Positions 3,659-19,633 of a stretch of DNA of 64,000 bases are shown piece by piece (the stretch's first letter is position 1; the number at the start of each line of letters is the position of its first letter). The notes beneath the pieces were generated by a model that was not told the DNA's origin, made no database searches, and worked only from the letters and a program-made list of their open reading frames with translations. Origin of the DNA: an uncultured Gammaproteobacteria bacterium (GTDB lineage: Bacteria; Pseudomonadota; Gammaproteobacteria; Steroidobacterales; Steroidobacteraceae); NCBI GenBank assembly GCA_963754125.1, contig CAVWEX010000001.1:820753-884752 (forward strand). Direction: 5' to 3'. The translations under genes were made by a program, and so were the position numbers.

Positions 3659-6181
3659 CAGTCTTCCTTCACGGCGCGCACCACGTCGTCGCCCATCGCC
3701 TGGCGGCCGCTCACGGCCGAGGTGAGCGCCGCGGCGACAACCAGCACGCCGCTCAGCACCGCGAGCAGCCCCCACGGCACGTGCACGTCCATGGTCCAGT
3801 GGAACGACTGCCGGTTCACCACGTAGATCAGGATCAGGCTCACCACGAAGCCCACCACGAGCCCCGTGACCACGCCCACCGCACCGAGCGCCGCGCCCTC
3901 GAAGGCCAGCATCCTGCCGATCTCGCCGCGCGTCACGCCGAGGTGGCGCAGCATGCCGAACTCGCCGCGCCGCGCCAGCACCTGCGAGCTCGTGCTCGCG
4001 CTGATGCCGAACAGCCCGATCAGCACCGCCACCGCCTCGAGCAGGTAGGTCACCGCGAAGGTGCGGTCGAAGACGCGCAGCGACATCCGGCGGATCTCGC
4101 GCGGCACCGCGATCTGGTAGCTGCCCTCGCGCTGCAGCGCGGCCTGGATGCGCTCGACCACCACGTCGGGTTCGGCGCCGCGCTCGAGCCACAGCGCCGC
4201 CGTGGTGGCGCGCGTGTCGCCGGTGTAGCGCACGAACACGTCGCGCGGCAGCACCACCGATCCACCCGGGCGCTCGTAGTCGCGCCACAGTCCGCGCACG
4301 CTGGCGCGCACGACCTCGCCGCCGAGCGGCAGGTCGAACACCGTGCCGACGTCGTAGCCGCGCAGGTCGAGCGCCGCTTCCGAGGCCCACACCGGCACGG
4401 TGCCCGGCGGCGCGGGCGCGGGGTCGGTGCGGCGCAGCGGCAGGATGGCGCCGGCGCCGGCCTCGTCGATCGGCCGCGCGATCAGCGTGAACGGCAGCCC
4501 GGAACCCGGCAACGCGACGTCCTGGAAGCGCACGAAGTCGGCGCGCGCGACGCCGTCGACGCCGGCGATCACGCGCTGCGCGGCCTCGTCGAGATAGCTC
4601 GTGAGTCCGGCCGAACCGGCGCGCACGTAGAGGTCCGCCGGCAGGATGCGCTGCATCCACGCGTCGAGCGAGATGCGGAACGAGTACACCATGATCGCCA
4701 TCGAGACCATCAGGCTGAAGCTCACGAGCACGGCCGCGATGCTCACGGTCGAGCGGCGCGCCGTGCCCTTGAGCTGCGCGCTCGCGATCTGCAGCCACGG
4801 CGGACCCGCGGCGGGCAGGCGGTCGAACGCGAGGTGCGAGAGCGTGGGCGCGAAGAACACCGCGCCGAGCAGCAGGCAGGCGATCGCCGTGTAGCCCGGC
4901 AGCGCGATGCCCTCGATCGGCGGCAGCAGCAGCGCCGCGACGGCGGCGGCCGACGAGCGCGAGCGCCACCCAGCCGTGACGGCGCGCCGCAAGCGGCGCC
5001 TCGTCGCCCGCCTTGAGCGCGGCGGCGGCGGGCACCGAGGCCGCCTCGCGCGCCGGACCCAGCGTGGCGACGATCGCCGCGGCGACACCGAGCCCGAGGA
5101 ACGCCAGCGTCTCCACCGGATGCACCGTGAGCTGCGGTGCGACGCCGCGGAAGTAGCCGGCGCCGAGGTCCGCGCCGAAGGCGGCGAGACCGGCGCGGGC
5201 GATGACGATGCCGAGCGCCACGCCGAGCGCCGCGCCCACGACGCCCACGAGCCCGCCCGACAGCAGCGCCGCCGCGAGCTGCTCGCGCACCGTCATGCCC
5301 ATCGCGTGCAGCAGCGCGATCTCGCGGCGGCGGCGCGCCACCGCGAGCGACTGCGTGGCGTACACGAGGAACGCGCCGGTGAAGAGCGCCACCAGCGCGA
5401 GCGCGGTGAGGTTCGAGCGGTACGCGAGCGACAGGCGCACCGCATCGTCGCTCGCCTCGCCGGGCGTGGTCAGGCGCACGCCGGGCGGCAGCAGCGCGCG
5501 CAGCGCATCCTGCACCGCGACCGGATCGGCGCCGGGCTCGAGGCGCAGGTCCACGCGATCGAGCCGGCCGAGCCGGTCGAGCCGCCACTGCGCGGTCGCG
5601 ATGTCGAGCATGCCGAGCGGCTGGCGGTACTCGCCCGCGGGCAGCAACCCGGCGACGCGCAACTGCACCGTGTCGAGCGCCACCTGCACCTCGAAGGCGT
5701 CGCCCACCGCGAGATCGAAGGCCTGCGCCGCCGCGGGGCTCAGCCACACCGAGTCCTCGGCGAGCAGGCCGCTGCCCTGCGAGGCGGTGGCGCCCGCCGC
5801 CGCGAGTCCCGGCTGCAGCCGCGCCGCGCGGAACGGATCGAGCCCGACGAGCTTCAGCGTCCGGTCGCGACCCGGCAGCCGCGCCTGCGCCTCGACGATG
5901 GGGCTCGCCACCGCGACGCCGGGCACGGCCGCGAGCTTCGGGTACAGCGCCTCGTCGAAGCCGAGCCCCGGCGCCTGCACCGAGAGGTCGGCCATGCCGA
6001 ACAGGCTGCGCGAGGCGAGCTGCACCTCGTCCGCGGCGACGCGGTTGATCAGGTACACGGAGAAGCCGAGCGCGACACCGAGCGCGATCGCGACGATCGC
6101 GAGGATCGTGCGTCCCGGCGCCTGGCGGAGCGGCCCGAGTGCCGCGGCCTCGAGCAGCGCCCGCCGCGCGCCGAACGTCAT
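3655..6181 (-). CDS. ABC transporter permease with two FtsX-type modules (YbbP/AttFG-like, about 840 aa)
   Basis: ATG 6181 (MTFGARRALLEAAALGPL...) in ORF 2174..6652 is joined near 4950 to ORF 3655..5088. There are two blocks of TM helices, each preceded by a large extracytoplasmic loop, and C-terminal FtsX-like helices (VTYLLEAVAVLIGLFGI...). Confidence 0.75.
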
Positions 6182-6198
6182 GGCGGGCGCGTCCACGC

Positions 6199-6929
6199 TC
6201 AGGCCGCCGGCGGCGCAGCGCGGGCGCAGCTGCAGCCCGGTGCGCGTCAGCTCGTAGATGCGATCTACGGTGGCCGCGGCAGTGGCCGAGTGCGTGACCA
6301 GCATGCCCGCCGCGTTGTCGCGCTTGATCTGGGCGCGGAGGATCTCGAGGATCACCGCGGCGTTGTCCGGGTCGAGGTTGCCGGTGGGCTCGTCGGCGAG
6401 CACCAGCGCCGGCCGGTGCGCGAGCGCGCGGGCCACGGCGACGCGCTGCATCTCGCCGCCCGACAGCTCGCGCGGCAGGCTGCCGGCGCGGTGCGCGAGG
6501 CCCACGGCCGTGAGCAGTTCATCGACGCGCTGCGCCGCCGCGGGACCGGCCTCGCCGTTGAGCGCGAGCGGCAGGCCCACGTTGCGCGCCACGCTGAGGT
6601 GCGGCAGCAGGTGGAAGGCCTGGAACACGAAGCCCATGCGCGCCCGCCGCACGCGGGTGCGCGCCGTCTCGTCGAGGCTGCGCGAGGTCGCGGCCCTCGA
6701 GCAGGATCTGGCCCGAGTCGGGCACGTCGAGCCCGGCGACGAGGTTGAGCAGCGTGGACTTGCCGACGCCGGACTCGCCCACGATCGCGACGTACTCGCC
6801 CGGCTGCACCGTGAGCTGGAGGCCGTCGAGCACGCGCCGGCCGCTCGCGCCGCCGTAGGACTTCGTCAGGTTGCGAACGTCGAGCATGCCGGTCAGATCG
6901 CAGCCGACGGCCGCGACAGCTGGATTCAT
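6199..6929 (-). CDS. ABC transporter ATP-binding protein (YbbA/LolD-like)
   Basis: ATG 6929 overlaps the ACP stop (ATGA). Motifs: Walker [10 protein letters not shown], signature LSGGEMQRV, Walker [10 protein letters not shown]-loop VTHS. There is a frame change near 6680. As given, the frame runs into the permease. Removing one base from a G/C run (6222-6238) yields ...LQLRRAAPPAA followed by TGA at 6199-6201, which I use as an uncertain 3' end. Confidence 0.75.
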
Positions 6930-7174
6930 CGTCGACGCCGCGGCCCGAGGTAGGCGACGCACTTGTCGAGGCTCGCGAGCCGCGAATAGTCCGTCTCCGG
7001 CACCTCGACGCCGAGTTCCCGGTGCAGCGCGATCGCGAAATTGAGCGTGTCCATGGAGTCGAAGTCGAACTGGTCGCGGAAGTCGATGCCGGGGATGACG
7101 CTCGACGCCTCGACGTCGGGCGCGATTTCGGTGATCAGGTCGAGGATACGCTTTGCGAGATCTTCGCGATTCAT
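6926..7174 (-). CDS. Stand-alone acyl carrier protein
   Basis: The protein is 82 aa with a phosphopantetheine attachment motif (DFDSMDTL). An AGGA-type RBS lies upstream of ATG 7174. The gene sits 9 nt after the E2 stop. Confidence 0.85.
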
Positions 7175-7183
7175 CTCATGTCC

Positions 7184-8338
7184 TCACAGCGAGCCGGGAT
7201 CGACGAGCCGCTGCGCGAGCTTCGCCAGGAACTGCGCGCCGAGCCGCCCGTCCGTGACGCGGTGATCGGCGCCGAGCGACAGGGTCAGCACCTGCCTCGG
7301 CACCACCTGTCCGTCCACGACCCAGGGACGCGCGGCGACCGCGCCGGCGCCCACGATCGCGACCTGCGGCGGCTGGATGATCGGGAACACGGCGTCCACC
7401 GACGCGTCGCCGAGGCTGGTCAGGATGATGGTGGGCGCGGCGAGCTCGCTCGCCCGCAGCCGACCGGCCCGCGCCCGCGACACGAGCGCGCGGAACTCCT
7501 CCATCAGCAGGGTGAGCGGCTTGTCGGCCGTGTCCATGAGCGCGGGTGCCACGAGTCCGCCGCCGCGCAGCGCGACCGCCACGCCGACGTGCACCGCCGG
7601 GCTTTCCTCGTAGCGTCCGTCGCGGTGGTAGCCGCTGAAGCCCGGCGTGTCGCGGCAGGTGAGCGCGAGGGCCTTCACCAGCAGCGCGGCGAACAGCAGT
7701 CGCTCGGTCACCGGCGCGGATGCGTTGTGCGCGGCCAGCCACTCGGTGGCCGCCGTGACGTCCACGGCCGTCGAGAGGTAGTAGTGCGGGATCTCACGCT
7801 TGGAGCGCGACATCGCCGCGGCGATCGCCGCGCGCATTCCGCCGCCCTGCCCCGCCTTCCCGACATCCTCCAGCGTCACCGCCCCACCCGGCCCGGAGCC
7901 CTGCAGCGACTCGACGTCCACGCCGAGTTCGCGGGCGCGCTTGCGGGCCGCGGGTGAGATCGCGCGCGCCGGGAAGACGCAGGCGGAGGCACGAGGTCGA
8001 CCTCGTGGACCCCGCCCGCGCCCTCTCCCGCCGGGGCGAGGTCGGGAGTGTGACCCTCGCCCCGGCCTGCTGTCGTGGTCTCGGCAGCAGGCGGAGAGCC
8101 CTCGGTCTCGATCAGCGCCAGCACCGTGCCGACCGGCACCTTGCGTGCCGGGCTGCACGACGATCTCGCGCACCACGCCGTCCTCGAAGATCTCGACGTC
8201 GATGGCGCCCTTGTCGGTCTCGACGATCGCCACGACGTCGCCGCGCTTCACGCGGCTGCCGGGCACCACGTGCCACTCGACGATCGTGCCTTCGTCCATG
8301 TCCGCGCCGAGCGCGGGCAGCCTGAATTCACTGGGCAT
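7184..8338 (-). CDS. 2-oxoacid dehydrogenase E2 (dihydrolipoamide acyltransferase)
   Basis: The lipoyl domain carries [11 protein letters not shown]. It is followed by an Ala/Pro/Gly linker and a subunit-binding segment ([33 protein letters not shown]). The catalytic domain has [12 protein letters not shown]. The linker is read from ORF 7876..8139, with frame changes near 8140 and 7985. Confidence 0.85.
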
Positions 8339-9321
8339 CGCTGAACAACCCCCGCACGGCGGCGACGATGCGCTTGGCGTTCGGCAGCGCCGCCTCCTCG
8401 AGATGCTTCGGATACGGGATCGGCACTTCCTCGGTGCACACCCGCGCGATCGGCGCATCGAGGTCGTAGAAGCCCTGCTCCACGATGCGCAGGCCGACCT
8501 CGGCCGCGAGGCTGCCGGTGCGCCAGCCTTCGTCCACGATCACGACGCGCTTGCGTCCTGCGCACCGAGGCGAGGATGGTCGCGTCGTCGAGCGGACGCA
8601 GGCTGCGCAGGTCCACGATCTCGGCCTCGATGCCGCCCGCGGCGAGTTCCTCCGCCGCCGCGACGCAGCGCCACAGGCTCGCGCCGTAGGTCACGAGCGT
8701 GACGTCGCGGCCGGCGCGGTGGATGCGCGCGCCGTCGAGTCGCACTTCGGATGCGGCGGCCGTGAGTTCCCCTTCCATGTTGTAGAGCGAGATCGGCTCG
8801 AACACGATCACCGGGTCGGGACAGGCGAGCGCGGCGCGCAGCATGCCGCGCGCGTCGTCGATGGTCGCGGGCTCCACCACGCGCAGCCCGGGCACGTGCG
8901 CGTACCAGGCCTCGAGGCTGTGCGAGTGCTGCGCGGCGAGCTGCCGCCCCGCGCCCGTCGCCATGCGGATCACGACCGGCACCGGGAACTGCCCGCCCGA
9001 CATGTGGCACAGCGTCGCCGCGTTGTTCACGATCTGGTCGAGCGCGAGCAGGCTGAAGTTGACCGTCATGATCTCGACGATCGGCCGCATCCCGCCGAGC
9101 GCCGCGCCGATGCCGGCACCGACGAACGCCGACTCCGAGAGCGGCGTGTCGCGGATGCGCTCCTCGCCGAATTCCTCGAGCAGCCCCTTGCTGACCGCGA
9201 AGCAGCCGCCGTACTTGCCGACGTCCTCGCCCATCAGGAACACGCGCGGATCGTCGTGCAGCGCCTCGCGGATCGCCTGCTTCACGGCCTCGCGATAGGT
9301 GATGCGCACGGTGTCGCTCAT
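8328..9321 (-). CDS. 2-oxoacid dehydrogenase E1 beta subunit
   Basis: ATG 9321 overlaps the E1alpha stop (ATGA). The sequence runs [21 protein letters not shown]...[12 protein letters not shown]...IRDTPLSE, typical of E1 beta. The last 71 aa come from ORF 8328..8543, with a frame change near 8545. Confidence 0.85.
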
Positions 9322-10305
9322 GACGCCACCTCCGCGTAGACGTGGCGCGCGAGGTCCTCGACCGGCTCCCACTCGGCGCGCTGCGGCGAACTCCGCTGCG
9401 GCACGCACCTCGTCGTCCGCCTGCGTGCTGCAGGCGCTGGAAGTCGTCCTCGGTCATCAGGCCCGCGGCCTTGAGCCGCGTCGTGAGCGTGATGAGCGGC
9501 CCGCGCTGCGCGCCACTCCTCGACCTCGGCCTTGTCGCGGTAGAGCTGCGCGTCGAACATCGAGTGCGCGCGCAGCCGGTAGGTGCGGAACTCGAGCAGC
9601 ACCGGGCCACGGCCCGCGCGCGCGTGCTCCGCCGCGCTGCGCACCGCCGCCTCGACCGCGAACACGTCCATGCCGTCCACCGCCGCGGCGCGCACGCCGT
9701 AGGCGGCGGCCTTGGCCTGGATGTCGGTCTGCGACTCCGAGCGCGCCAGCGCCGTGCCCATGGCGTAGAGGTTGTTCTCGCACAGGAACAGCACCGGCAG
9801 CTTCCACAGCGCCGCGAGGTTCATGCGACTCGTGGAACTCGCCCTCCGCGGCCGCACCTTCGCCGAAGAAGCAGGCGGCGAGGTTGCGGCGTGCCCTGCA
9901 GCTTCTCGGCGAGCGCGAGCCCCACCGCGAGCGGCAGCCCGCCGCCCACGATGGCGTTGCCGCCGTAGAAGCGCGTGGCCGCGTCGAACACGTGCATCGA
10001 GCCGCCGCGCCCGCCGCTGCAGCCGCTGCGCTTGCCGTACAGCTCCGCCATCAGCGGGTTCATGGCGATGCCGCGCGCGAGCGCGTGGCCGTGCTCGCGG
10101 TAGGTGGAGACGATCGCGTCGCCCGAGCCCAGCACCTGCATGACGCCGACGGCGATCGCCTCCTCGCCGTCGCACAGGTGCAGGAAGCCGCGGATGTGCC
10201 CGGCGCCGTAGAGCTCCGCGCAGCGGTCCTCGAACTGGCGGATGCGCAGCATCTCGCCGAGCAGGTGCAGGCCGCGCTCGCGGGTGAGTCCGGCGGGCAG
10301 GTCGC

Positions 10306-10309
<4 letters not shown>
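9318..10309 (-). CDS. 2-oxoacid dehydrogenase E1 alpha subunit (ThDP-dependent)
   Basis: ATG 10309 overlaps the ligase stop (ATGA). Motifs: [36 protein letters not shown]. Hand translation gives [46 protein letters not shown]. There are about five frame changes, near 9897, 9828, 9490, 9415 and 9385. Confidence 0.8.
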
Positions 10310-12073
<1,764 letters not shown>

Positions 12074-12233
12074 GGAGGTTCCCCTCGTGCCGGAAGGTGT
12101 CGTTCGCCCTCACTGTAGGCGCCGCGGACCGCGCCTGAATGCGGAATTACCGCGGACAGGTGTTTCCCCCGATGACCACGCGTCGGCCGCTCTGGTAATC
12201 GGGAAGGACCCCACCCGAGGCACGGAGCCTGCC

Positions 12234-12839
12234 GTGACCAACCCACCCTCCCCGCCGGTCGAGCTCGACGTCCGGGTGCCCGTGTGGGAGCGGGTGTTCA
12301 TGGTCGCCCCGCTGGTGCTCGTGGGCACGCGCGAGCCGGACGGCACGTTCGACCTCGCGCCGAAGCACCTCGCGCTGCCGTTGAGCTGGCAGAACCACTT
12401 CGGCTTCGTCTGCACCCCGCGCCACTCGACCTACGCGAACGCGTTGCGCGAGCGCGCCTTCACCGTGAGCTACCCGCGGCCCGCGCAGCTGGTGCACACG
12501 AGCCTCGCCGCCTCGCCGCGCTGCGCCGACGGCACGAAGCCGGCCGTGGCGACCTTGCCCACGCGGCCGGCGCGGCGCGTCGCCGGCGTGCTGGTGGACG
12601 GCGCCTCGCTCGCGCTCGAGTGCGAGCTCGAGCGCGTGGTGGAGGGCTTCGGCGAGAACGGCCTCGTGGTCGGCCGCATCGTCGCGGCCTGGGCGGACCC
12701 GGCGGCGCTGATCGACGCCGACCGCGAGCCCGAGCAGGTGCTGGCCGAATCGCCGCTGCTCGCCTACGTGCATCCGGGGCGGTTCGCCGAAATCGCCGCC
12801 GCGTATTCGTTCCCGCTGCCGGAGGGCATGCACCGGTGA
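12234..12839 (+). CDS. Flavin-reductase-like (split-barrel FMN-binding) protein
   Basis: GTG 12234 has GGAG 6 nt upstream. The upstream part of ORF 12051 overlaps the divergent ligase gene. The pattern VFMVAPLVLVGT...DGTFDLAPKH...FGFVC matches the family by resemblance only. Confidence 0.55.
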   Translation: MTNPPSPPVELDVRVPVWERVFMVAPLVLVGTREPDGTFDLAPKHLALPLSWQNHFGFVCTPRHSTYANALRERAFTVSYPRPAQLVHTSLAASPRCADGTKPAVATLPTRPARRVAGVLVDGASLALECELERVVEGFGENGLVVGRIVAAWADPAALIDADREPEQVLAESPLLAYVHPGRFAEIAAAYSFPLPEGMHR

Positions 12840-14019
12840 GCGGCCTGCCGCCCGGCGTGGACCCGCTGCGCGTGCTGCACGAGGTGCGCTGGCGCCGCGA
12901 CCAGTTCGTCTCGCTGCTCGAGACGCTGTGCCGCGCCGAGTCGCCCTCGCTCGATCCGGTGGCGCAGCAGGCGGTGCACACGGTGCTGGCCGCCAACCTC
13001 GAAGCGCTGGGCTTCGACGTGCGCCGGCTGCCGGGTCGCCGCAGCGGCGTGCACCTGTACGCGCGTCCCCGCCGGCGCCGGCGCGGCGCGCCGGTGCAGC
13101 TGCTCATGGGCCACTACGACACCGTGTGGCCCGCCGGCACGCTCGCCACCATGCCGTTCGCGATCGAGGGCGACCGCGCCCGCGGGCCGGGCGTGTACGA
13201 CATGAAGGGTGGACTCGCGCAGGTCGTGGTCGCGCTCGCCACGCTGCGCGGCCTCGGGCTCGAGCCCGTGGTCACGCCGGTCGTGCTCGTGAACGCCGAC
13301 GAGGAAGTGGGCAGCCGCGAGTCGGGACGGCACGTGCGGCGGCTGGCCCGCATCGCCGACCGCGCGCTGGTGCTCGAGCCCTCGCTCGGCATCGAGGGCC
13401 GGCTCAAGACCGAGCGCAAGGGCGTGGCGCGCTACACGGTCACCGTGAAGGGGCGCGCGGCCCACGCCGGGCTCGATCCGACGGCCGGCGCCAGCGCCAT
13501 CCTCGAGCTGTCGCACGTGATCCAGGCGCTGTTCGCGCTGAACGATCCCGCGCAGGGCGTGACGGTGAACGTCGGCACGATCGACGGCGGACTGCGTCCC
13601 AACGTGGTGGCGCCGGAGAGCCGCGCGGTCGTGGACGTGCGCACCCGGACGACCGCAGAGGCCGCGCGCGTGGACCCGCGATCCGTGCGCTGCAGCCGGT
13701 GACGGCCGGCACGACGCTGAGTGTCGAGGGCGGTGTCGGTCGCCCGCCGCTCGAGCCCACGCCGCGCAACACGGCCTTGTTCGAGGCCGCCCGGACGCTC
13801 GGCTCGCGGGTGGACCTCGCGCTCGAGGGCGGGCTCGCGGGCGGCGGCTCCGACGGCAGCACGGCGAGCCAGTACACCGCGACGCTCGACGGGCTCGGGC
13901 CGGTCGGCGACGGCGCGCACGCCGCGCACGAGTACCTCGAGATCGGGCCGACGCTCGACCGGGCCGCGCTGCTCGCGCTGCTGCTGCTGGCGCCACCGTC
14001 GCAGGCCGGGACCCACTGA
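12836..14019 (+). CDS. M20-family metallopeptidase/deacylase (carboxypeptidase G2-like)
   Basis: GTG 12836 overlaps the upstream stop (GTGA). Motifs: LMGHYDTVWP, GPGVYDMKGG, VNADEEVGS. The C-terminus (GGGSDGS...DGAHAAHEYLEI) lies in ORF 12928..14019, with a frame change near 13680. Confidence 0.8.
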
Positions 14020-14020
14020 G

Positions 14021-15037
14021 ATGCGCCACTGCCTGCACGCCTCCGTGACCCGCATCACCGACCTCGAGCAGGTGCCGTTCGACGTGCACCCGCTGCCGCG
14101 CGACCGCTGGGAGACCGCCGACTACGTGCTGGTCGAGGTGCTCGGTCCCTCGCACTACCCGTTCGAGATCGCCAACGGCCGGCTCGTGGACGCGGTCGCC
14201 GGCGACCTCGTCGTCGGCGCGCTCGGCAAGCGCTCGGCGACGCTCGAAGTGGTGGGCGACTGGAGCCAAACCAGCGTCACGGGCGAGATGCACGCGCTCA
14301 CCGGCGCGGGGCTGTTCGGGCTCGCGACCTCGCTGTCCACCTGGCTCAAGCCCCTGACGCCGATCGTGTATCGCGGCCACGTCACGCGCAGCGGCCACAA
14401 GCTCAACATGCGCGACTTCGTCGTGCCGGTGGCGCCGGCCGTGCCGACCGCGCCGGTGATCCTGCTGGTCGGGACCTCGATGTCGGCCGGCAAGACCACC
14501 ACCGCTCGGGTCGTCGTGCGCATGCTTGCCGAGCGCGGACTGCGGGTGCTCGCCTGCAAGCTCACCGGCGCGGCCCGCTACCGCGACATCCTCTCCTGCC
14601 TCGACGTGGGCGCCGAGCACGTCATGGACTTCGTGGACGCGGGCCTGCCGTCCACGGTCTGCGACGAGTCCGACTATGCCCCCGCGATCGAGCACCTGCT
14701 GTCGCGGATGGCGGCGCTCGACCCCGACGTGATCGTCGCCGAGGCCGGCGCCTCGCCGCTCGAGCCCTACAACGGCACCGAGGCCTATCGCCGCCTCAAG
14801 CCGCTGGTGAAACTCGCGATCCTGTGCGCCTCGGATCCCTACGCGGTGCTCGGTGTGCAGCACGCGTTCAACATCGCGCCGGACCTCGTCGCGGGGCCCG
14901 CGGCCAACACGACGGCCGCCGTCGAGCTGGTGAAGCGCCTCACCGGCGTGCGCGCGCTCAACCTGCTCGAGCGCGGCGGCGCGGAGGAACTGCGGATGCT
15001 GCTCGACGAGAGGATCGTGCGGCCGTGCCTGGGCTGA
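14021..15037 (+). CDS. Uncharacterised P-loop protein, DUF1611/DgcN-like C-terminal domain
   Basis: ATG 14021 follows the M20 stop by 1 nt. The ORF is an intact 338 aa. A Walker-A-like VGTSMSAGKTTTA is followed by KLTGAARY...MDFVDAG...VIVAEAGASPLEPYNG. This layout recalls the DUF1611 P-loop domain. The N-terminal ~150 aa are unassigned. Confidence 0.45.
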   Translation: MRHCLHASVTRITDLEQVPFDVHPLPRDRWETADYVLVEVLGPSHYPFEIANGRLVDAVAGDLVVGALGKRSATLEVVGDWSQTSVTGEMHALTGAGLFGLATSLSTWLKPLTPIVYRGHVTRSGHKLNMRDFVVPVAPAVPTAPVILLVGTSMSAGKTTTARVVVRMLAERGLRVLACKLTGAARYRDILSCLDVGAEHVMDFVDAGLPSTVCDESDYAPAIEHLLSRMAALDPDVIVAEAGASPLEPYNGTEAYRRLKPLVKLAILCASDPYAVLGVQHAFNIAPDLVAGPAANTTAAVELVKRLTGVRALNLLERGGAEELRMLLDERIVRPCLG

Positions 15038-16554
15038 ACCCGCCACCCGGCAGCGCCGGGGAATGCACTGCGTTCGCCGCGCTGCAGGCGCGCTTGCCCG
15101 CGCTCTTCCGCAACGTGTTCTCCGACCCCGCCGCCCCGCGCACCGTGGTCGTGGTGCCGGGCCTCAGCATGGACGGCGAGGTGCTCTCGAAGGTGGTGGG
15201 CGGCCGCCACTACGAGGAACGGCAGCTCGCGATGCTCATGCTGCTGCGCCTGCCGAACACCCGTCTCGTGTTCGTGAGCAGCACGCGGATCGAGCCTTCG
15301 ATCATCGACTACCACCTCGGGCTGCTGCAGGACGTACCCGTCGAGGATGCGCGCCGGCGGCTGGTGCTGCTCTCGGCGGCCGATGCCTCGCCGCAGACGC
15401 TCACGCAGAAGATCCTCGACCGGCCGCGCCTGCTCGAGCGCATCCGCGCGGGCGTAGGCGACCCGGCACTCGCCCACCTCACCTGCTTCAACGTGACGCC
15501 GCTGCGAGCGCACGCTCGCGGTGCGGCTCGGCATCCCGCTGTACGGCTGCGACCCCGCGCTGATGGAACTCGGCGGCAAGAGCGGCAGCCGCCAGGCGTT
15601 CCGCGCCGCGGGCATCGCGCTGCCGGACGGCAGCGAGGACCTGCGCGACGCGCCGCGATCTCGTTGCGGCGCTCGCGGCCTTGAAGGGACGACATCCCGG
15701 ACTCGAGCGTGCGGTCGTGAAGCTCAACCACGGCTTCTCCGGCGAGGGCAACGCGGTGTTCTCCTTCGCCGGCTGCCCGGAGGACGAGCAGCCCCGGTGG
15801 ATCGCGGCCCACCTGCCGCTCAACCTCTCGATCGAGGCGCGCGACCTGGGCTGGGACCGCTACGCCGCGAAGCTCGCCGAGCAGGGCGGCATCGTCGAGT
15901 CGTGGGTGTCGGGCACCGGGCTGCGTTCACCGTCCGTGCAGATGCGCATCACGCCGCTCGGCGACCTCGAGTTCATCTCGACGCACGACCAGATCCTCGG
16001 CGGGCCGTCCGGACAGATCTTCCAGGCGTGCACCTTCCCGGCCGACGCCGCCTATGCACTCGAAATCCAGGCGCTCGCGCGGCGCGTCGGCGAGGTGCTG
16101 AAGGCCCGGGGCGTGCTCGGGCGCTTCGGCGTGGACTTCGTGTCCGTGCCGCGCGAGGACGGCTGGGAGCACCTCGCCATCGAGATCAACCTGCGCAAGG
16201 GCGGCACGACGCACACCTTCCAGATGCTGCAGTTCCTGACCGGCGGCCGCTACGACCCGGAGCGCGCCGTGTTCGTCACGCCGTCCGGCGCCGAGCGCAG
16301 CTATTTCGCGACCGACAACGTGGTGAGCCCGGCCTACCGCCGCCTGACGCCCGGACGACCTGTTCGAGATCGCGGCCCGCCGCGACCTGCGCTACGACCC
16401 CGTGGGGCAGTGCGGCGTGACGTTCGGCCTCGTCGGCGCGCTGTCGGAGTGCGGCAAGCTCGGGATGGTGGCGATCGACGCCGACTGCGAGGCCGCGCGG
16501 CGGCGGTTCCGCCGCGCCGTCGCGGTGCTCGACGAGGAAGCCGCTCGGGAATAG
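15025..16554 (+). CDS. ATP-grasp ligase resembling PGM1-type peptide ligases
   Basis: GTG 15025 overlaps the upstream gene by 13 nt, and the stop is TAG 16552-16554. The product is about 505-510 aa, stitched from ORFs 14824.., 15521.., 15681.. and the first frame again. It has a pre-ATP-grasp-like N-domain (VVVPGLSMDGEVLSKVVGGRHYEERQLAMLMLLRLPNTRLVFVSS). The ATP-grasp core shows AVVKLNHGFSGEGN, FGVDFV and HLAIEINLRKGGTTH. Frame changes lie near 15500, 15660 and 16350. Confidence 0.65.
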
Positions 16555-16560
16555 GGCTCG

Positions 16561-16891
16561 CTACGCCGCCCGCGGCGTGATCTCGTTCAGCCGGTCGCCG
16601 AGCTTGCGCTTCTGCTCCATCAGGTCGTATTCGCGCCTGCAGGCCCAGGAAGAACCCCGCGTGAAGGTTGAAGTAGCGCGCGAGCCGCAGGTCGGTGTCC
16701 GCCGAGACCGCGCGCTTGCCGAGCACGAGTTCGTTGATGCGGCGAGGCGAGACCTTCAGCGCGCGAGCCAGCGCGTTCTGGCTCATCTCCATCGGCTTGA
16801 GGAAATCCTCGAGCAGGATCTCGCCCGGATGAGGATTCGGCACCAGCGCGACCTTGCGCTTCCTAGTAGTGGTAGTCGACGATTTCGACAT
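16561..16891 (-). CDS. higA: HigA-family antitoxin (XRE-type HTH)
   Basis: ATG 16891. Motifs are NPHPGEILLEDFL and the HTH MSQNALARALKVSPRRINELVLGKRAVSADTDLRLARYF. The C-terminal tail (REYDLMEQKRKLGDRLNEITPRAA, TAG 16561-16563) needs a frame change near 16640. Confidence 0.8.
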
Positions 16892-17147
16892 CTTCCGGTC
16901 CTCTGTCACCCCAGCGAAAGCAGACGCGCCACTGATCGTTGAGCCGGATGCTGAACTGACCCAGGCGCTTGCCAACGAGGGCCTCGAGCCGGTTGCCTGG
17001 AGGCGCCACCAGTTCGCCAACCGTTGCGGCCTCGTTGAGCAGACGCAACTTCCGGACGGCGACTCCGAGTATCCACGGCGGCAACCTGCGGCTGCCCTCG
17101 CCCGTCCAGATGCGCTCGGTCTCCCGGTCGCGGAAGCTCACGATCAT
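16863..17147 (-). CDS. higB: HigB-type toxin (RelE/ParE superfamily, plasmid-killer type)
   Basis: The ORF is an intact 94 aa: MIVSFRDRETERIW...GNRLEALVGKRLGQFSIRLNDQWRVCFRWGDRGPEDVEIVDYH. The gene order is toxin first, and it overlaps higA by 29 nt. Confidence 0.85.
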   Translation of the reverse strand: MIVSFRDRETERIWTGEGSRRLPPWILGVAVRKLRLLNEAATVGELVAPPGNRLEALVGKRLGQFSIRLNDQWRVCFRWGDRGPEDVEIVDYHY

Positions 17148-17175
17148 CGGCAGTCCCTCGCCTTATAACGCGCGA

Positions 17176-17187
17176 CGTCATATGACG
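17176..17187. promoter_or_regulatory. Candidate HigBA operator palindrome
   Basis: The perfect 12-bp palindrome CGTCATATGACG lies 29 nt upstream of the higB start. A third half-site, GCGTCATA, occurs at 17192-17199. Confidence 0.4.
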
Positions 17188-17366
17188 CAAGGCGTCATAG
17201 CCTGGCGCGCGGTCGGAACTGATCGTGGATCGCGGAATCGCTTTGGGCCAGCCGGGAATCAGGCGTGATCGAACAGATACGGGCGGTCGTCACGGTTCGC
17301 GCGCAGCGGGGAACACCCGCCGTCGCGGTGCCGGACGAGCACGTTGCCCGGGACTGAAAGACCCCA

Positions 17367-17388
17367 CTCTCCCGCGCAAGCGGGAGAG
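17367..17388 (-). terminator. Stem-loop downstream of sucD (terminator or REP-like element)
   Basis: CTCTCCCGC-GCAA-GCGGGAGAG lies 17 nt after the sucD stop, with only a weak T-run after it on the minus strand. The flanking GGATCGGTGTGAGGGG recalls REP-type intergenic repeats; this is recollection and is not verified. Confidence 0.35.
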
Positions 17389-17404
17389 GATCGGTGTGAG
17401 GGGA

Positions 17405-18467
<1,063 letters not shown>

Positions 18468-18469
18468 GA

Positions 18470-19633
18470 TTACTTCCTCGCGGCCGCGACGACTTTCTTC
18501 GCCGCATCGGTGAGATCGGCCGCGGCAATGAGCTCGAGCCCGCTCTCCTTCAGCATCTTTCGCCCGAGCGGCGCGTTGGTGCCCTCGATGCGAACCACCA
18601 CCGGCAGGTGCAGGCCGAGGTCGCGCGCCGCGCCGATCACGCCCTCCGCGATCATGTCGCAGCGGACGATGCCGCCGAAGATGTTGACCAGGATCGCCTT
18701 CACCTTCGGGTTCTGCAGGATCAGCTTGAACGCCGTCGTGACCCGCTCGCGCGTGGCGCCGCCGCCCACGTCGAGGAAATTCGCGGGCGAGCCGCCGTGC
18801 AGCTTGATGAGGTCCATCGTCGCCATGGCGAGGCCCGCGCCGTTCACCATGCAGGCGATGTCGCCGTCGAGCGAGACGTAGTTCAAGTCGGCCTCGGCGG
18901 CCACGCGCTCCATCTCGTCCTCCTGCGAGGGGTCGCGCCAGGCGACGAGGTCCTTCTGGCGGAACAGCGCGTTGTCCTCGATGTTGATCTTGGCGTCGAG
19001 GGCCATCACGTCGCCGTCGCCCGTGACGATCAGCGGATTGACCTCGACGAGGCTCGCGTCGCACTCGAGGTAGAGCTTGTACAGGGCGCGGGCAATCGCC
19101 TCGAACTGCGCGACCTGCGCGCCCTTGAGCCCGAGGCCGAACGCGAGTACGCGGCAATGCGAGCCCTGCAGCCCGGAGGCCGGGTGGATCTCGACGCGGA
19201 TGATCTTCTCCGGCGTCTTCGCGGCGACCTCCTCGATGTCCATGCCGCCGGCGGCCGAGGCCACGAACGCGATGCGGCCCGTGTCGCGGTTGAGCAGCAG
19301 GCTGAGGTACAGCTCGCGCTCGATCTTCGAGCCCGACTCCACGTACACCTGGTTGATCGGCAGGCCCTCGGCGCCGGTCTGCTTGGTGACGAGGCGCTCA
19401 CCGAGCATCGCGGCCGCGGCGGTCGACACGTCCGCCACCGTCTTCACGACCTTCACGCCACCGGCCTTGCCGCGGCCGCCCGCGTGGACCTGGGCCTTGA
19501 CCACCCAGACGCCTCCGCCGAGGCGACGGGCCGCGTCGGCGGCCTCCTCCGGTGTCGAGGCGACGTGACCGGTGGGCACCGGGATGCCGTAGCGGGCAAA
19601 GAGCTGCTTGGACTGGTATTCGTGGAGGTTCAT
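18470..19633 (-). CDS. sucC: Succinyl-CoA synthetase beta subunit
   Basis: ATG 19633. The ORF is an intact 387 aa: [20 protein letters not shown]...[18 protein letters not shown]...[10 protein letters not shown]. Confidence 0.95.

Follow-up and report, generated by a model that had tools for sequence, protein, structure and literature searches.

The four plus-strand genes at 12234-16554 of the window, the 64,000-nucleotide stretch of gammaproteobacterial DNA analysed here, very probably belong to two independent units that adjoin only in the window's lineage, rather than to a dedicated four-gene pathway tied to the opposite operon. The first unit (12234-15037) would be a cassette of an FMN-binding split-barrel protein, a di-metal M20 amidohydrolase like carboxypeptidase G2 (CPG2) and a two-domain P-loop enzyme, hereafter the trio. 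The second (15025-16554) would be a BesA/PGM1-type ATP-grasp ligase, which in the sister lineage directly faces an AcsA-PDH-ACP-ABC operon. This explanation as a whole, architecture and proposed chemistry together, is reasonably likely in our judgment.

Gene content and reading frames

Re-reading of the sequence showed that every gene junction given in the original prediction was exact, which bears out the tight packing of the four genes (Table 1); 160 bp separate gene 1 from the divergent ligase gene (ATG 12073, minus strand). The predicted families of all four proteins agreed with Pfam, and the reported absence of a precursor-peptide ORF also held. Scans of 11800-17400 found no Rfam families, sigma-70 consensus promoters or intrinsic terminators. 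In the downstream flank, synteny is shared with the related loci L001-L004 and L089.

Table 1. Features of the block, the divergent operon and the flanks
Feature	Position	Strand	Basis and details
ABC ATPase and FtsX permease, after ACP	about 4132-6887		translation, synteny
Small divergent ACP	6926-7174	-	translation; PP-binding 26.4 bits
E2	about 7184-8338	-	translation, synteny
PDH-type E1 beta	about 8328-9321	-	translation, synteny
PDH-type E1 alpha	about 9318-10309	-	translation, synteny
AcsA-type acetate-CoA ligase, first gene of divergent operon	10306..12073	-	NF003313, PF00501, PF13193
Divergent intergenic region	12074..12233	.	alignments A3 and A4
AcsA-side conserved block CACTGTAGG	12111-12119		alignment
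AcsA-side conserved palindrome GCGGAATTACCGC	12141-12153		alignment
Trio-side TTTCCCCCGATGACC	12163-12177		alignment
Trio-side CTCTGGTAATCGG	12190-12202		alignment
GGAG ribosome-binding site, trio side	12224-12227		
Gene 1, flavin-reductase-like split-barrel FMN-binding protein (Flavin_Reduct), 201 aa, intact	12234..12839	+	PF01613; start GTG 12234, stop TGA 12837-12839
Gene 2, CPG2-like M20A metallo-amidohydrolase, 394 aa, one base restored	12836..14019	+	Pfam, PDB; start GTG 12836, stop TGA 14017-14019; GTGA overlap with gene 1
Gene 3, two-domain P-loop protein, 338 aa, intact	14021..15037	+	PF07755 partial, AlphaFold, Foldseek; start ATG 14021, stop TGA 15035-15037; 1-nt gap from gene 2
Gene 4, BesA/PGM1-family ATP-grasp ligase, 508 aa, extra bases removed	15025..16554	+	Pfam, PDB; separate module; start GTG 15025, stop TAG 16552-16554; 13-nt overlap with gene 3
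HigA/HigB toxin-antitoxin pair	16564-17147	-	tblastn of relatives' genes
sucD, frameshifted	17429-18467	-	tblastn of relatives' genes
sucC	18473-19633	-	tblastn of relatives' genes

According to the GC3 frame plot and three-frame translation, genes 1 and 3 are intact, and the frame shifts once in gene 2 and three times in gene 4. The lesions were placed by alignment to three relatives (92% identical): one base is lost at about 13675 in the M20 gene, and one surplus base each is present at about 15502, 15652 and 16356 in the ATP-grasp gene. The original prediction had spoken of corrected proteins, which implies such frame changes. Once repaired, the products have the lengths of the intact genes in L001-L004 and are 91-95% identical to their L001 counterparts, and dN/dS is 0.12-0.16 across the four genes (gene 1, 0.15). 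About 25 single-base indels occur in 9.9 kb, affecting nearly all genes; frameshifts elsewhere in the window lie in sucD, ftsX, the ABC ATPase gene, higA and the gene for a sigma-54 activator.

It is highly improbable that the frameshifts are real and mark the decay of the M20 gene, the ATP-grasp gene and much of their surroundings into pseudogenes in this genome. Four frame changes within 4.3 kb, and indel sites outside homopolymer runs, would fit decay; however, nonsense substitutions are absent, repair regains the exact full length, and the closest relatives, some of which have broken genes too, are long-read MAG assemblies. Because the same kind of indel is spread over the window, including the housekeeping gene sucD, and dN/dS is low, the frameshifts look like sequencing or assembly errors rather than gene decay.

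Synteny of the trio, the ATP-grasp gene and the divergent operon

About 160 related loci were compared overall, and the survey of the trio covered 88 fetched loci, 84 of them non-redundant. Relatives of the P-loop protein are present in at least 585 GTDB species genomes, and about 80 loci, spread over many phyla, keep the trio in the same order and on the same strand. Strains of Crocosphaera and Cyanothece are among the carriers. The only co-conserved neighbours of the P-loop gene are the M20 gene (82 of the 84 non-redundant loci) and, upstream of it, the Flavin_Reduct gene (78 of 84). Judged by gene order, the trio is a widespread, self-contained three-gene cassette, as yet uncharacterised.

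The ATP-grasp gene has a different distribution. Seven sister-lineage loci carry it directly opposite the AcsA-PDH-ACP operon, which lies 128-159 bp upstream of it, without the trio, and about 50 more distant loci (48-61% identity) have neither the trio nor the AcsA operon, nor any conserved neighbour of the ligase gene. From these contexts, the ligase is a widespread stand-alone gene. The trio is combined with the ATP-grasp gene and AcsA/E1/E2/ACP in only five of the 84 non-redundant loci (7/88 fetched), all at least 75% identical and from the window's own lineage.

The divergent operon begins with the AcsA gene, which carries about six single-base indels; its stitched protein scores 850.7 bits against NF003313 (cut-off 729). 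For the L004 orthologues, TIGR03182 gave 438 bits (cut-off 394) and NF006667 393 bits (cut-off 321), so that E1 alpha and E1 beta exceed the NCBI cut-offs for ordinary pyruvate dehydrogenase subunits, whereas E2 (210 bits, cut-off 445) and the ACP (34 bits, cut-off 71) stay below theirs. In the intergenic region, alignments A3 and A4 show the AcsA-side blocks whether or not the trio is present, and the trio-side block in trio-containing loci only. TTTCCCCCGATGACC and CTCTGGTAATCGG look like a -35/-10 pair, a promoter reading that we only infer, since the consensus promoter scan came up empty.

The original prediction had read the four genes and the AcsA-PDH-ACP-exporter operon as a single 14-kb locus, under shared control across the 160 bp, that makes or possibly salvages an N-acylated amino acid or a small peptide. 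Such a locus is unlikely. Its appeal lies in the tight gene packing and the conserved P-loop/ATP-grasp overlap, in the persistence of the full arrangement at about 15 loci of the window's gammaproteobacterial lineage, in the ATP-grasp gene also adjoining the AcsA operon in the sister lineage, and in the chemical sense of an acetyl supply beside a possible N-acyltransferase. Yet about 79 of the 84 trio loci, across phyla, have neither operon nor ATP-grasp gene, the ligase occurs without either partner in the distant loci above, and the E1 subunits resemble those of ordinary pyruvate dehydrogenase. Three of the four plus-strand genes are thus not conserved as a unit with the divergent operon. 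The case for shared control is weak, as the intergenic motifs segregate by module. Because the trio is found apart from the operon, and the ligase apart from the trio, both the "four-gene operon" and the "14-kb unit" would be a juxtaposition of separable modules in one lineage. The loci that combine all three parts are close relatives, in which synteny tells little, so that it speaks neither for nor against a functional link.

Under the preferred two-unit reading, the trio and its own upstream block would, in the window's lineage, separate the ligase gene from the AcsA operon, as something gained or lost as a block. Since the start of the ligase gene overlaps the end of the P-loop gene, the ligase is probably co-transcribed with the trio in this lineage. 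The 13-nt overlap is kept there, and it is conceivable that a functional link between trio and ligase was acquired secondarily.

Protein families

Gene 1 matches PF01613 with 55.3 bits (cut-off 27), and its closest solved structures are an FMN-binding protein (1eje, E 5e-6) and flavoredoxin (1usc, E 2e-5). The M20 protein scores 73.5 bits against PF01546 and 69.8 bits against PF07687, and it matches the CPG2 structures 6xj5 and 1cg2 (E 1e-34). All CPG2 metal and catalytic positions (H, D, EE, E, H) are kept as identical residues in the alignment. Its top NCBIfam model is glutamate carboxypeptidase NF004788, with 227 bits under a cut-off of 349.

The ATP-grasp protein matches PF24923 (83.9 bits) and PF18105 (35.3 bits), with PF18604 under cut-off at 20.6 bits. 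BesA (8yi6) is its sole PDB sequence match, almost full length, at E 4.5e-39; with the NCBIfam BesA model NF042917 it scores 156 bits (cut-off 750).

The P-loop protein

The interesting part of the trio is gene 3, whose product joins a confidently predicted, previously unseen beta-domain to an NTPase domain like those of dethiobiotin synthetase (DTBS), CobQ and DUF1611. In its AlphaFold model (pLDDT 94.3), residues 1-125 form an all-beta N-domain, and residues 146-338 make up a SIMIBI-class P-loop NTPase domain with Walker A GTSMSAGKTT, a GTSxxxGKT loop of DTBS/CobQ type, and Walker B VAEAG. The original prediction had found only a DUF1611-like resemblance and left the N-terminal half unassigned, and both points stand: the PF07755 match is partial (34.7 bits; profile positions 11-119 of 201), and the N-domain modelled by itself (pLDDT 94.7) found no fold relative in the PDB (lowest E-value 0.41). 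Foldseek with the full model matched the C-domain only, always at TMq <=0.41, to FtsY/Ffh, dethiobiotin synthetase 3of5, HypB, CTP synthase and the DUF1611 protein 2obn. Among 34 homologues (49-95% identity), 81 alignment columns are invariant, and the invariant polar residues of the N-domain include R11, D34, E49, R54, R71, T74 and H120.

Could the P-loop protein help the di-metal M20 enzyme to mature, as an NTP-dependent factor or metallochaperone like HypB, UreG or CobW? Of the Foldseek matches, HypB has the best TM-scores and RMSD (TMt 0.61, 4.3 A), the P-loop and M20 genes almost strictly co-occur and are translationally coupled, and one protein, P0253, fuses the two, though this single cluster representative could be a read-through artefact. 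We nevertheless regard this role as very unlikely: the invariant residues include neither a Cys/His-rich metal-binding motif nor the NKxD guanine-specificity motif, the Walker A is of DTBS/CobQ type, the many invariant polar residues of the N-domain form a pattern typical of a substrate site, and some paralogues have no adjacent M20 gene.

One paralogue, P0451 (37% identity over 280 aa, E 1e-33), lies in an arginine operon at one locus: argG-[P-loop]-argC-argD-argF'(N-acetylornithine carbamoyltransferase)-argB-argE-argH. This operon carries an ArgE-type M20 gene and lacks argA, argJ and a GNAT domain on ArgB, the N-acetylglutamate synthase being missing. Other paralogues adjoin RimK-family glutamate ligases in three loci; of the 88 fetched loci of the true trio, only 4-5 have a RimK-type ligase nearby.

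Possible chemistry of the trio

The trio might serve to break down or salvage conjugates of glutamate, for instance gamma-glutamyl compounds, pteroyl-glutamate, p-aminobenzoyl-glutamate or N-acyl-glutamates. In that case the P-loop protein would use ATP to phosphorylate a substrate or to open a ring, M20 would free glutamate, and the flavoprotein would handle the other moiety. This is rather doubtful. CPG2, the closest relative of the M20 protein, removes C-terminal glutamate, GGT lies directly 3' of the trio in 10 of the 84 loci, 4/88 fetched loci (two of which, L005 and L045, represent one region) have an FAD oxidase of GlcD or D-2-hydroxyacid type upstream, and the surroundings of the cassette are variable and often catabolic-looking. 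On the other side, no transporter or regulator is consistently linked to the trio across the 84 loci, GGT is found in just 12% of them, M20 stays under the glutamate carboxypeptidase cut-off, and the paralogue contexts (arginine operon, RimK ligases) are biosynthetic.

We tentatively propose instead that the trio N-acylates an amino acid, modifies the product and then deacylates it. The P-loop enzyme would turn the amino group of a glutamate-type amino acid into an amide. It would either activate a carboxylate with ATP, as DTBS and CobQ do, or transfer an acyl group from acyl-CoA, as does DgcN, which we take to be a member of DUF1611. The flavoprotein would transform the N-blocked intermediate, and M20 would take off the blocking group or free glutamate. 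The proposal is made because of the SIMIBI fold with its DTBS/CobQ-type loop, the retained CPG2 residues, the P0253 fusion, the P0451 operon, the RimK neighbours, the occupation of the slot 3' of the trio by GGT or a BesA-like gamma-glutamyl ligase, and the activity of DgcN, a D-glutamate N-acetyltransferase (EC 2.3.1.312; PMC11747546). The amide-making and trimming module of the original prediction stays plausible for the P-loop and M20 pair, in view of their fusion and of the arginine-operon paralogue with its ArgE-type M20. In its protect-modify-deprotect logic, the trio may be likened to ArgA...ArgE, to DgcN-DgcA-deacetylase and to BesA...GGT.

Gene Organization and Integrity

The coding regions of the window, which has a G+C content of ~72%, were traced by a GC3 frame plot together with three-frame translations. 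The four plus-strand genes and the junctions between them lie exactly where the original prediction had placed them, and its domain calls were confirmed by Pfam, NCBIfam and PDB sequence searches: a flavin reductase-like protein (gene 1), an M20 peptidase (gene 2), a P-loop protein (gene 3) and a PGM1-type ATP-grasp ligase (gene 4). Genes 1 to 3 are referred to below as the trio. The divergent minus-strand AcsA operon encodes an AcsA ligase, E1 alpha, E1 beta, E2 and an ACP.

Features of the locus, in window coordinates
Feature	Start	End	Strand	Junction or state	Product
ABC ATPase and FtsX permease region	~4132	~6887		after the ACP gene	
ftsX	4132	6181		frame broken	
ABC ATPase gene	6224	6887		frame broken	
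AcsA ligase gene	12073		-	160 bp from gene 1	
Palindrome	12141	12153		upstream of AcsA operon	
Gene 1 (Flavin_Reduct)	12234 (GTG)	12839 (TGA)	+	intact	201 aa
Gene 2 (M20)	12836 (GTG)	14019 (TGA)	+	GTGA overlap with gene 1	394 aa after repair
Gene 3 (P-loop)	14021 (ATG)	15037 (TGA)	+	1-nt gap from gene 2; intact	338 aa
Gene 4 (ATP-grasp)	15025 (GTG)	16554 (TAG)	+	13-nt overlap with gene 3	508 aa after repair
HigB/HigA pair	16564	17147	-	between gene 4 and sucD	
higA	16564	16891		frame broken	
sucD	17429	18467		frame broken	
Sigma-54 activator gene	23713	24832		frame broken	

The reading frame changes once in gene 2 and three times in gene 4, and not at all in genes 1 and 3. When the window is aligned with three relatives that are 92% identical in DNA, the lesions resolve to single-base indels near 13675, 15502, 15652 and 16356. 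After repair, the protein lengths equal those of the intact genes in four fetched relatives (L001-L004), with 91-95% identity to the L001 proteins. One reading is that the frameshifts are real and the genes are pseudogenes. However, the 9.9 kb compared with relatives contain about 25 scattered single-base indels, five further genes of the window (those for sucD, FtsX, an ABC ATPase, HigA and a sigma-54 activator) are also broken, and dN/dS relative to L001 stays within 0.12-0.16 in each of the four genes, frameshifted or not; on this distribution and these ratios we reject the pseudogene reading. The nearest relatives are long-read soil metagenome-assembled genomes labelled as uncultured Gammaproteobacteria. 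Given the window-wide spread, the uniform dN/dS and the long-read origin of these relatives, we conclude that the indels are most probably assembly errors and that the four genes are in all likelihood functional. The indels are mostly an extra G or C outside homopolymer runs (e.g., TT-CG read as TTGCG), and the pattern across the window suggests a systematic long-read consensus error.

Separable Modules at the Locus

The original prediction regarded the plus-strand genes and the AcsA operon as one 14-kb biosynthetic, or possibly salvage, locus for an N-acylated amino acid or small peptide under shared control. When the query proteins were mapped onto 88 fetched loci (84 non-redundant) and all ORFs were clustered, the only conserved neighbors of the P-loop gene were the M20 gene (82 of 84 loci) and the Flavin_Reduct gene (78 of 84), always upstream of it, co-oriented with it and in constant order. 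Only 5 of the 84 loci (7 of the 88) have, in addition to the trio, the ATP-grasp gene and the AcsA-E1alpha-E1beta-E2-ACP set, and every one of these is a close relative of the window with a P-loop protein at least 75% identical. A gamma-glutamyltransferase gene directly follows the trio in 10 of 84 loci, and a GlcD-like FAD oxidase gene precedes it in a few. RimK-type ligases were considered as a conserved partner of the trio and rejected, as they occur in only 4-5 of the 88 loci, and plus-strand ORF clusters lying over M20 or P-loop on the minus strand were set aside as antisense shadow ORFs, a usual feature of high-GC DNA.

The ATP-grasp gene has a different distribution. Eighty loci centered on a 70%-identical ATP-grasp orthologue fall into three tiers. 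In tier A (ATP-grasp 75-81% identical), the arrangement of the window is kept, with the trio immediately upstream and the AcsA operon beyond it. In tier B (seven loci, 67-72%), the AcsA operon is divergent at a distance of 128-159 bp and the trio is missing; in tier C (~50 loci, 48-61%), there is neither the trio nor the AcsA operon. No neighbor of any kind is conserved across the ~50 tier C loci, the largest shared family (AnmK-like by eye) being found in six of them. The linkage of the ATP-grasp gene to the AcsA operon is thus confined to one family-level lineage.

The intergenic region is divided in the same way. On the AcsA side, the conserved blocks (CACTCTAGG and the palindrome ATGCGGAnTTnCCGCG) occur in tiers A and B alike, while the trio-proximal block (TTCCCCCGATGACC, 16-17 nt, G[GAC]TAAT, then GGAG) exists only where the trio does. 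On this evidence, the trio and the region upstream of it have been gained or lost as one unit, inserted between ATP-grasp gene and AcsA operon or removed from there. The palindrome of the window (12141-12153), GCGGAATTACCGC, is near-perfect, precedes the AcsA operon and is kept with and without the trio; it is a candidate operator of that operon. An Rfam scan of 11800-17400 (E <=1) returned only a chance viral match, and a scan for consensus promoters and terminators found none. The earlier statement that there is no precursor-peptide ORF agrees with our data: neither the clustering of ORFs of at least 90 aa, which covered the intergenic region and the gene junctions, nor inspection of the intergenic alignments by eye revealed a short conserved ORF.

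In the AcsA operon, the ligase passes the NCBI acetate-CoA ligase cut-off (851 vs 729 bits) and E1 alpha and E1 beta pass those for pyruvate dehydrogenase, whereas E2 and the small ACP score below theirs. The ACP gene is followed by genes for a LolD/MacB-like ABC ATPase and a large FtsX permease in the window, in L004 and in another fetched relative, L089 (which also has AttH). In L001-L003 (461-2728), this place is taken by a 194-aa ORF and a gene resembling that of apolipoprotein N-acyltransferase (LNT_N/CN_hydrolase), so the proposed "exporter" is not a fixed part of the AcsA operon.

The HigB/HigA pair separates the ATP-grasp gene from sucD in the window and L001-L003 and is absent from L004 and L089, and other toxin-antitoxin modules of the neighborhood are PIN/MazE, Phd/PIN and HipA. 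REP-like G+C-rich palindromic elements, 54 nt and 77 nt long (..CTCTCCCGC.CCAGCGGGAGAGGG.CGGGGTGAGGG..) occur in L001-L003; the sites, intergenic or linker, are at ~3750 and ~12540 in L001, and the window has none at ~7853 and ~16561.

Taken as one co-conserved cluster of trio, ATP-grasp gene and AcsA-PDH-ACP operon, the full set exists in a single lineage, and its modules are separate elsewhere. Co-conservation of the divergent operons fails for three of the four plus-strand genes, as most loci carry the trio without the minus-strand operon. The rival view of a single biosynthetic cluster is therefore not supported, and as a candidate for such a cluster the locus is unremarkable. Splitting it into separable modules averts a false call of this kind.

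The P-loop Protein and Its Family

AlphaFold and Foldseek assign the C-terminal two-thirds of gene 3 to the SIMIBI P-loop fold (model pLDDT ~94; 94.7 in the N-domain), with a Foldseek probability of 1.00 against FtsY/Ffh, DTBS, HypB and CTP synthase. Two SIMIBI hallmarks, a Walker A motif (GTSMSAGKTT) and a Walker B motif (VAEAG), are invariant in 34 homologues. Across these sequences (49-95% identity), 81 columns are invariant, including the DTBS/CobQ-like loop and many polar residues of the N-domain. The N-terminal 125 residues are confidently predicted to be all-beta, and alone they have no fold match in the PDB by Foldseek (best E 0.41, TM <=0.23).

The only Pfam model above threshold is PF07755, which matches the C-terminal P-loop domain at 34.7 bits (cut-off 25). 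The match is partial, spanning profile positions 11-119 of 201 (residues 143-277), and it is weak, faint or absent in many homologues. A CbiA match falls below the Pfam threshold, and the NCBIfam search gave nothing beyond a sub-threshold MobB match (E 0.003). A PDB sequence search with the family profile returned nothing below E 0.3.

The protein had been described as resembling only the DUF1611/DgcN fold, and this restraint was justified. Like the DUF1611 structures 2obn and 2g0t, it has ~340 aa in two domains, and its C-domain is compatible with membership. The N-domain and the overall fold are not: DUF1611 proteins have a Rossmann-like N-domain, whereas the all-beta N-domain predicted for gene 3 lacks both a relative in the PDB and a Pfam match to DUF1611_N (PF17396), and 2obn ranks only 47th in Foldseek (TM 0.38), aligned to the C-domain alone. 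The P-loop family is thus at best a sister family of DUF1611, in which DgcN is reportedly placed. DgcN is a D-glutamate N-acetyltransferase (EC 2.3.1.312; PMC11747546); it acts on the glutamate amino group, which matches the glutamate-centered contexts of the P-loop family. No enolase-type racemase (DgcA-like) is conserved beside the trio in the neighbor clustering of 84 non-redundant loci.

A second comparison is with DTBS, CobQ, CobB and CTP synthase, which use ATP to activate a carboxylate or carbamate for C-N bond formation. They share the C-domain fold and the phosphate loop GT[SD]xxxGKT with gene 3, and members of the P-loop family give weak CbiA and AAA_26 matches. However, identity is only 13-16%, these enzymes do not have the conserved beta-domain of gene 3, and gene 3 has no glutaminase partner.

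Relatives of the P-loop protein occur in at least 585 GTDB species genomes. The carriers include Gamma-, Alpha- and Betaproteobacteria, Cyanobacteria (Crocosphaera, Cyanothece, Pleurocapsales) and Planctomycetota, as well as Acidobacteriota, Actinomycetota, Bacteroidia and Binatia. When 1.8 billion cluster representatives were searched with a family profile, 1,523 clusters matched at E <=1e-3. No Pfam model is dedicated to the family, which numbers ~1,500 clusters at 50% identity. In the literature searched (DUF1611/DgcN, COG3367/PF07755, BesA/PGM1, DgcA and the missing N-acetylglutamate synthase, NAGS), neither the trio nor the P-loop family is described.

Partners of the P-loop Protein

Gene 1 is a Flavin_Reduct split-barrel protein (PF01613, 55.3 bits vs 27) whose closest structures are the FMN-binding protein 1eje and flavoredoxin 1usc. 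No NCBIfam equivalog matched it, and no partner monooxygenase is conserved nearby in the 84 clustered loci.

Gene 2 is an M20A hydrolase nearest to carboxypeptidase G2 (CPG2), with matches to PF01546 and PF07687. It shares the catalytic and dimerization domains of CPG2 (1cg2, 6xj5), and all metal and catalytic residues align, with identity to 6xj5 at the HxD, D(M/D)KGG, DEE, E(P) and H positions. It differs from CPG2 in that overall identity is only ~30% and in always having the P-loop and flavoprotein genes as partners. Its score also lies under the NCBIfam glutamate carboxypeptidase cut-off (NF004788; 226.8 vs 349 bits).

Gene 4 has the ATP-grasp core PF24923 (83.9 bits, cut-off 27) and the PGM1_C domain PF18105 (35.3 bits, cut-off 22.5). 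The pre-ATP-grasp domain PF18604 scores 20.6 bits against a cut-off of 27.5 and is detected in some orthologues; the alignment with BesA extends through this region. BesA (8yi6), an L-propargylglycine--L-glutamate ligase, is the only solved relative (E 4.5e-39, residues 43-501), and PGM1 is absent from the PDB sequence matches at E <=1e-3. The product of BesA is gamma-Glu-propargylglycine (bioRxiv 10.1101/2025.10.10.681649). Gene 4 aligns nearly full length with BesA and shares PGM1_C and PF24923 with the group of BesA and PGM1, the latter from pheganomycin biosynthesis. Unlike BesA, it has no bes or other natural-product genes nearby, and its orthologue group is a widespread stand-alone gene without a conserved partner. 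Its score against the BesA equivalog NF042917 is 155.9 bits, compared with the 750 required, and no halogenase, PLP-enzyme or Fe/2OG neighbors were found in ~90 loci.

Paralogues, Fusions and an Arginine Operon

The P-loop family has a large paralogue tier of 25-37% identity with the same two-domain architecture. Among its cluster representatives, P0253 (740 aa) is an M20-P-loop fusion and P0333 (939 aa) joins the P-loop protein to a SAM methyltransferase and a TauD/TfdA dioxygenase. Four paralogue contexts (L171-L174) were inspected. In L171 (6001-10312), L172 (1031-5491) and L174 (1316-6593), which come from a 1-Mb Nanohaloarchaeon (Candidatus Nanosalina) and two metagenome contigs, the paralogues adjoin RimK-family alpha-L-glutamate ligases (one or two) as well as a ~520-aa Peptidase_C39_2-like protein. 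In L172 and L174, this group is next to ribosomal-protein genes.

The fourth context is an arginine operon (L173, 4715-13044) with the order argG-[P-loop]-argC-argD-argF'-argB-argE-argH, in which the paralogue P0451 (6001-7044) is 37% identical to gene 3. The argF' product passes the N-acetylornithine carbamoyltransferase cut-off, the 13 kb seen contain no argA or argJ, and L173 ArgB carries no acetyltransferase (GNAT) domain. Because these sources of N-acetylglutamate are missing, P0451 would fill the place of the absent synthase, which makes it a candidate for a new type of NAGS on the basis of gene context.

Proposed Chemistry and Implications

In several known pathways, an amide-forming enzyme and an M20 deacylase bracket a transformation, as in ArgA/ArgJ...ArgE, LysX/LysW...LysK and DgcN-DgcA. 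The P-loop paralogues resemble the first, by their place in an operon with ArgE and without ArgA/ArgJ, and the second, by adjoining RimK/LysX-type ligases. The trio differs in having no linked kinase, reductase or aminotransferase and a flavoprotein as the middle enzyme. Together, these contexts are suggestive of a link between the P-loop protein and amino-acid N-acylation.

We propose, tentatively, that the trio makes or recycles an amino-acid derivative. The P-loop enzyme would form an amide on a glutamate-type amino acid, the flavoprotein might (as a guess) act on the N-blocked intermediate, and the M20 enzyme would remove the blocking group at the end. This protect-modify-deprotect pathway draws on the CPG2-like M20 enzyme, the gamma-glutamyltransferase or BesA-like gamma-glutamyl ligase downstream, and the DTBS/CobQ-type phosphate loop; we regard it as possible but rather doubtful. 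The CPG2-like hydrolase and the downstream gamma-glutamyltransferase also bear on the idea that the trio is a salvage route for glutamate conjugates, set against which are the biosynthetic surroundings of the paralogues (the arginine operon and the RimK-type ligases); we think this route unlikely. Alternatively, though improbably, the P-loop protein could be a metallochaperone of the M20 enzyme, with which it is almost always paired and once fused; paralogues that have no M20 gene next to them speak against this.

On the protect-modify-deprotect reading, the family would combine a new beta-domain with a SIMIBI P-loop, and the 338-aa protein would be its founding example. One branch would be the missing NAGS of N-acetylornithine-carbamoyltransferase-type arginine operons, and another would work with RimK-type ligases in Nanohaloarchaea. 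That all of this holds jointly (an unrecognized N-acyl- or isopeptide-forming family, its NAGS and RimK branches, and a pan-bacterial protect-modify-deprotect trio) seems to us unlikely, though worth stating. The trio itself is a very widespread uncharacterized cassette of cyanobacteria, planctomycetes, proteobacteria, acidobacteria and actinobacteria. If the proposal is true, it would give a function to thousands of proteins whose present label is 'hypothetical', 'DUF1611' or, wrongly, 'NAD-dependent epimerase', and it might supply the missing N-acetylglutamate synthase step of some arginine pathways.
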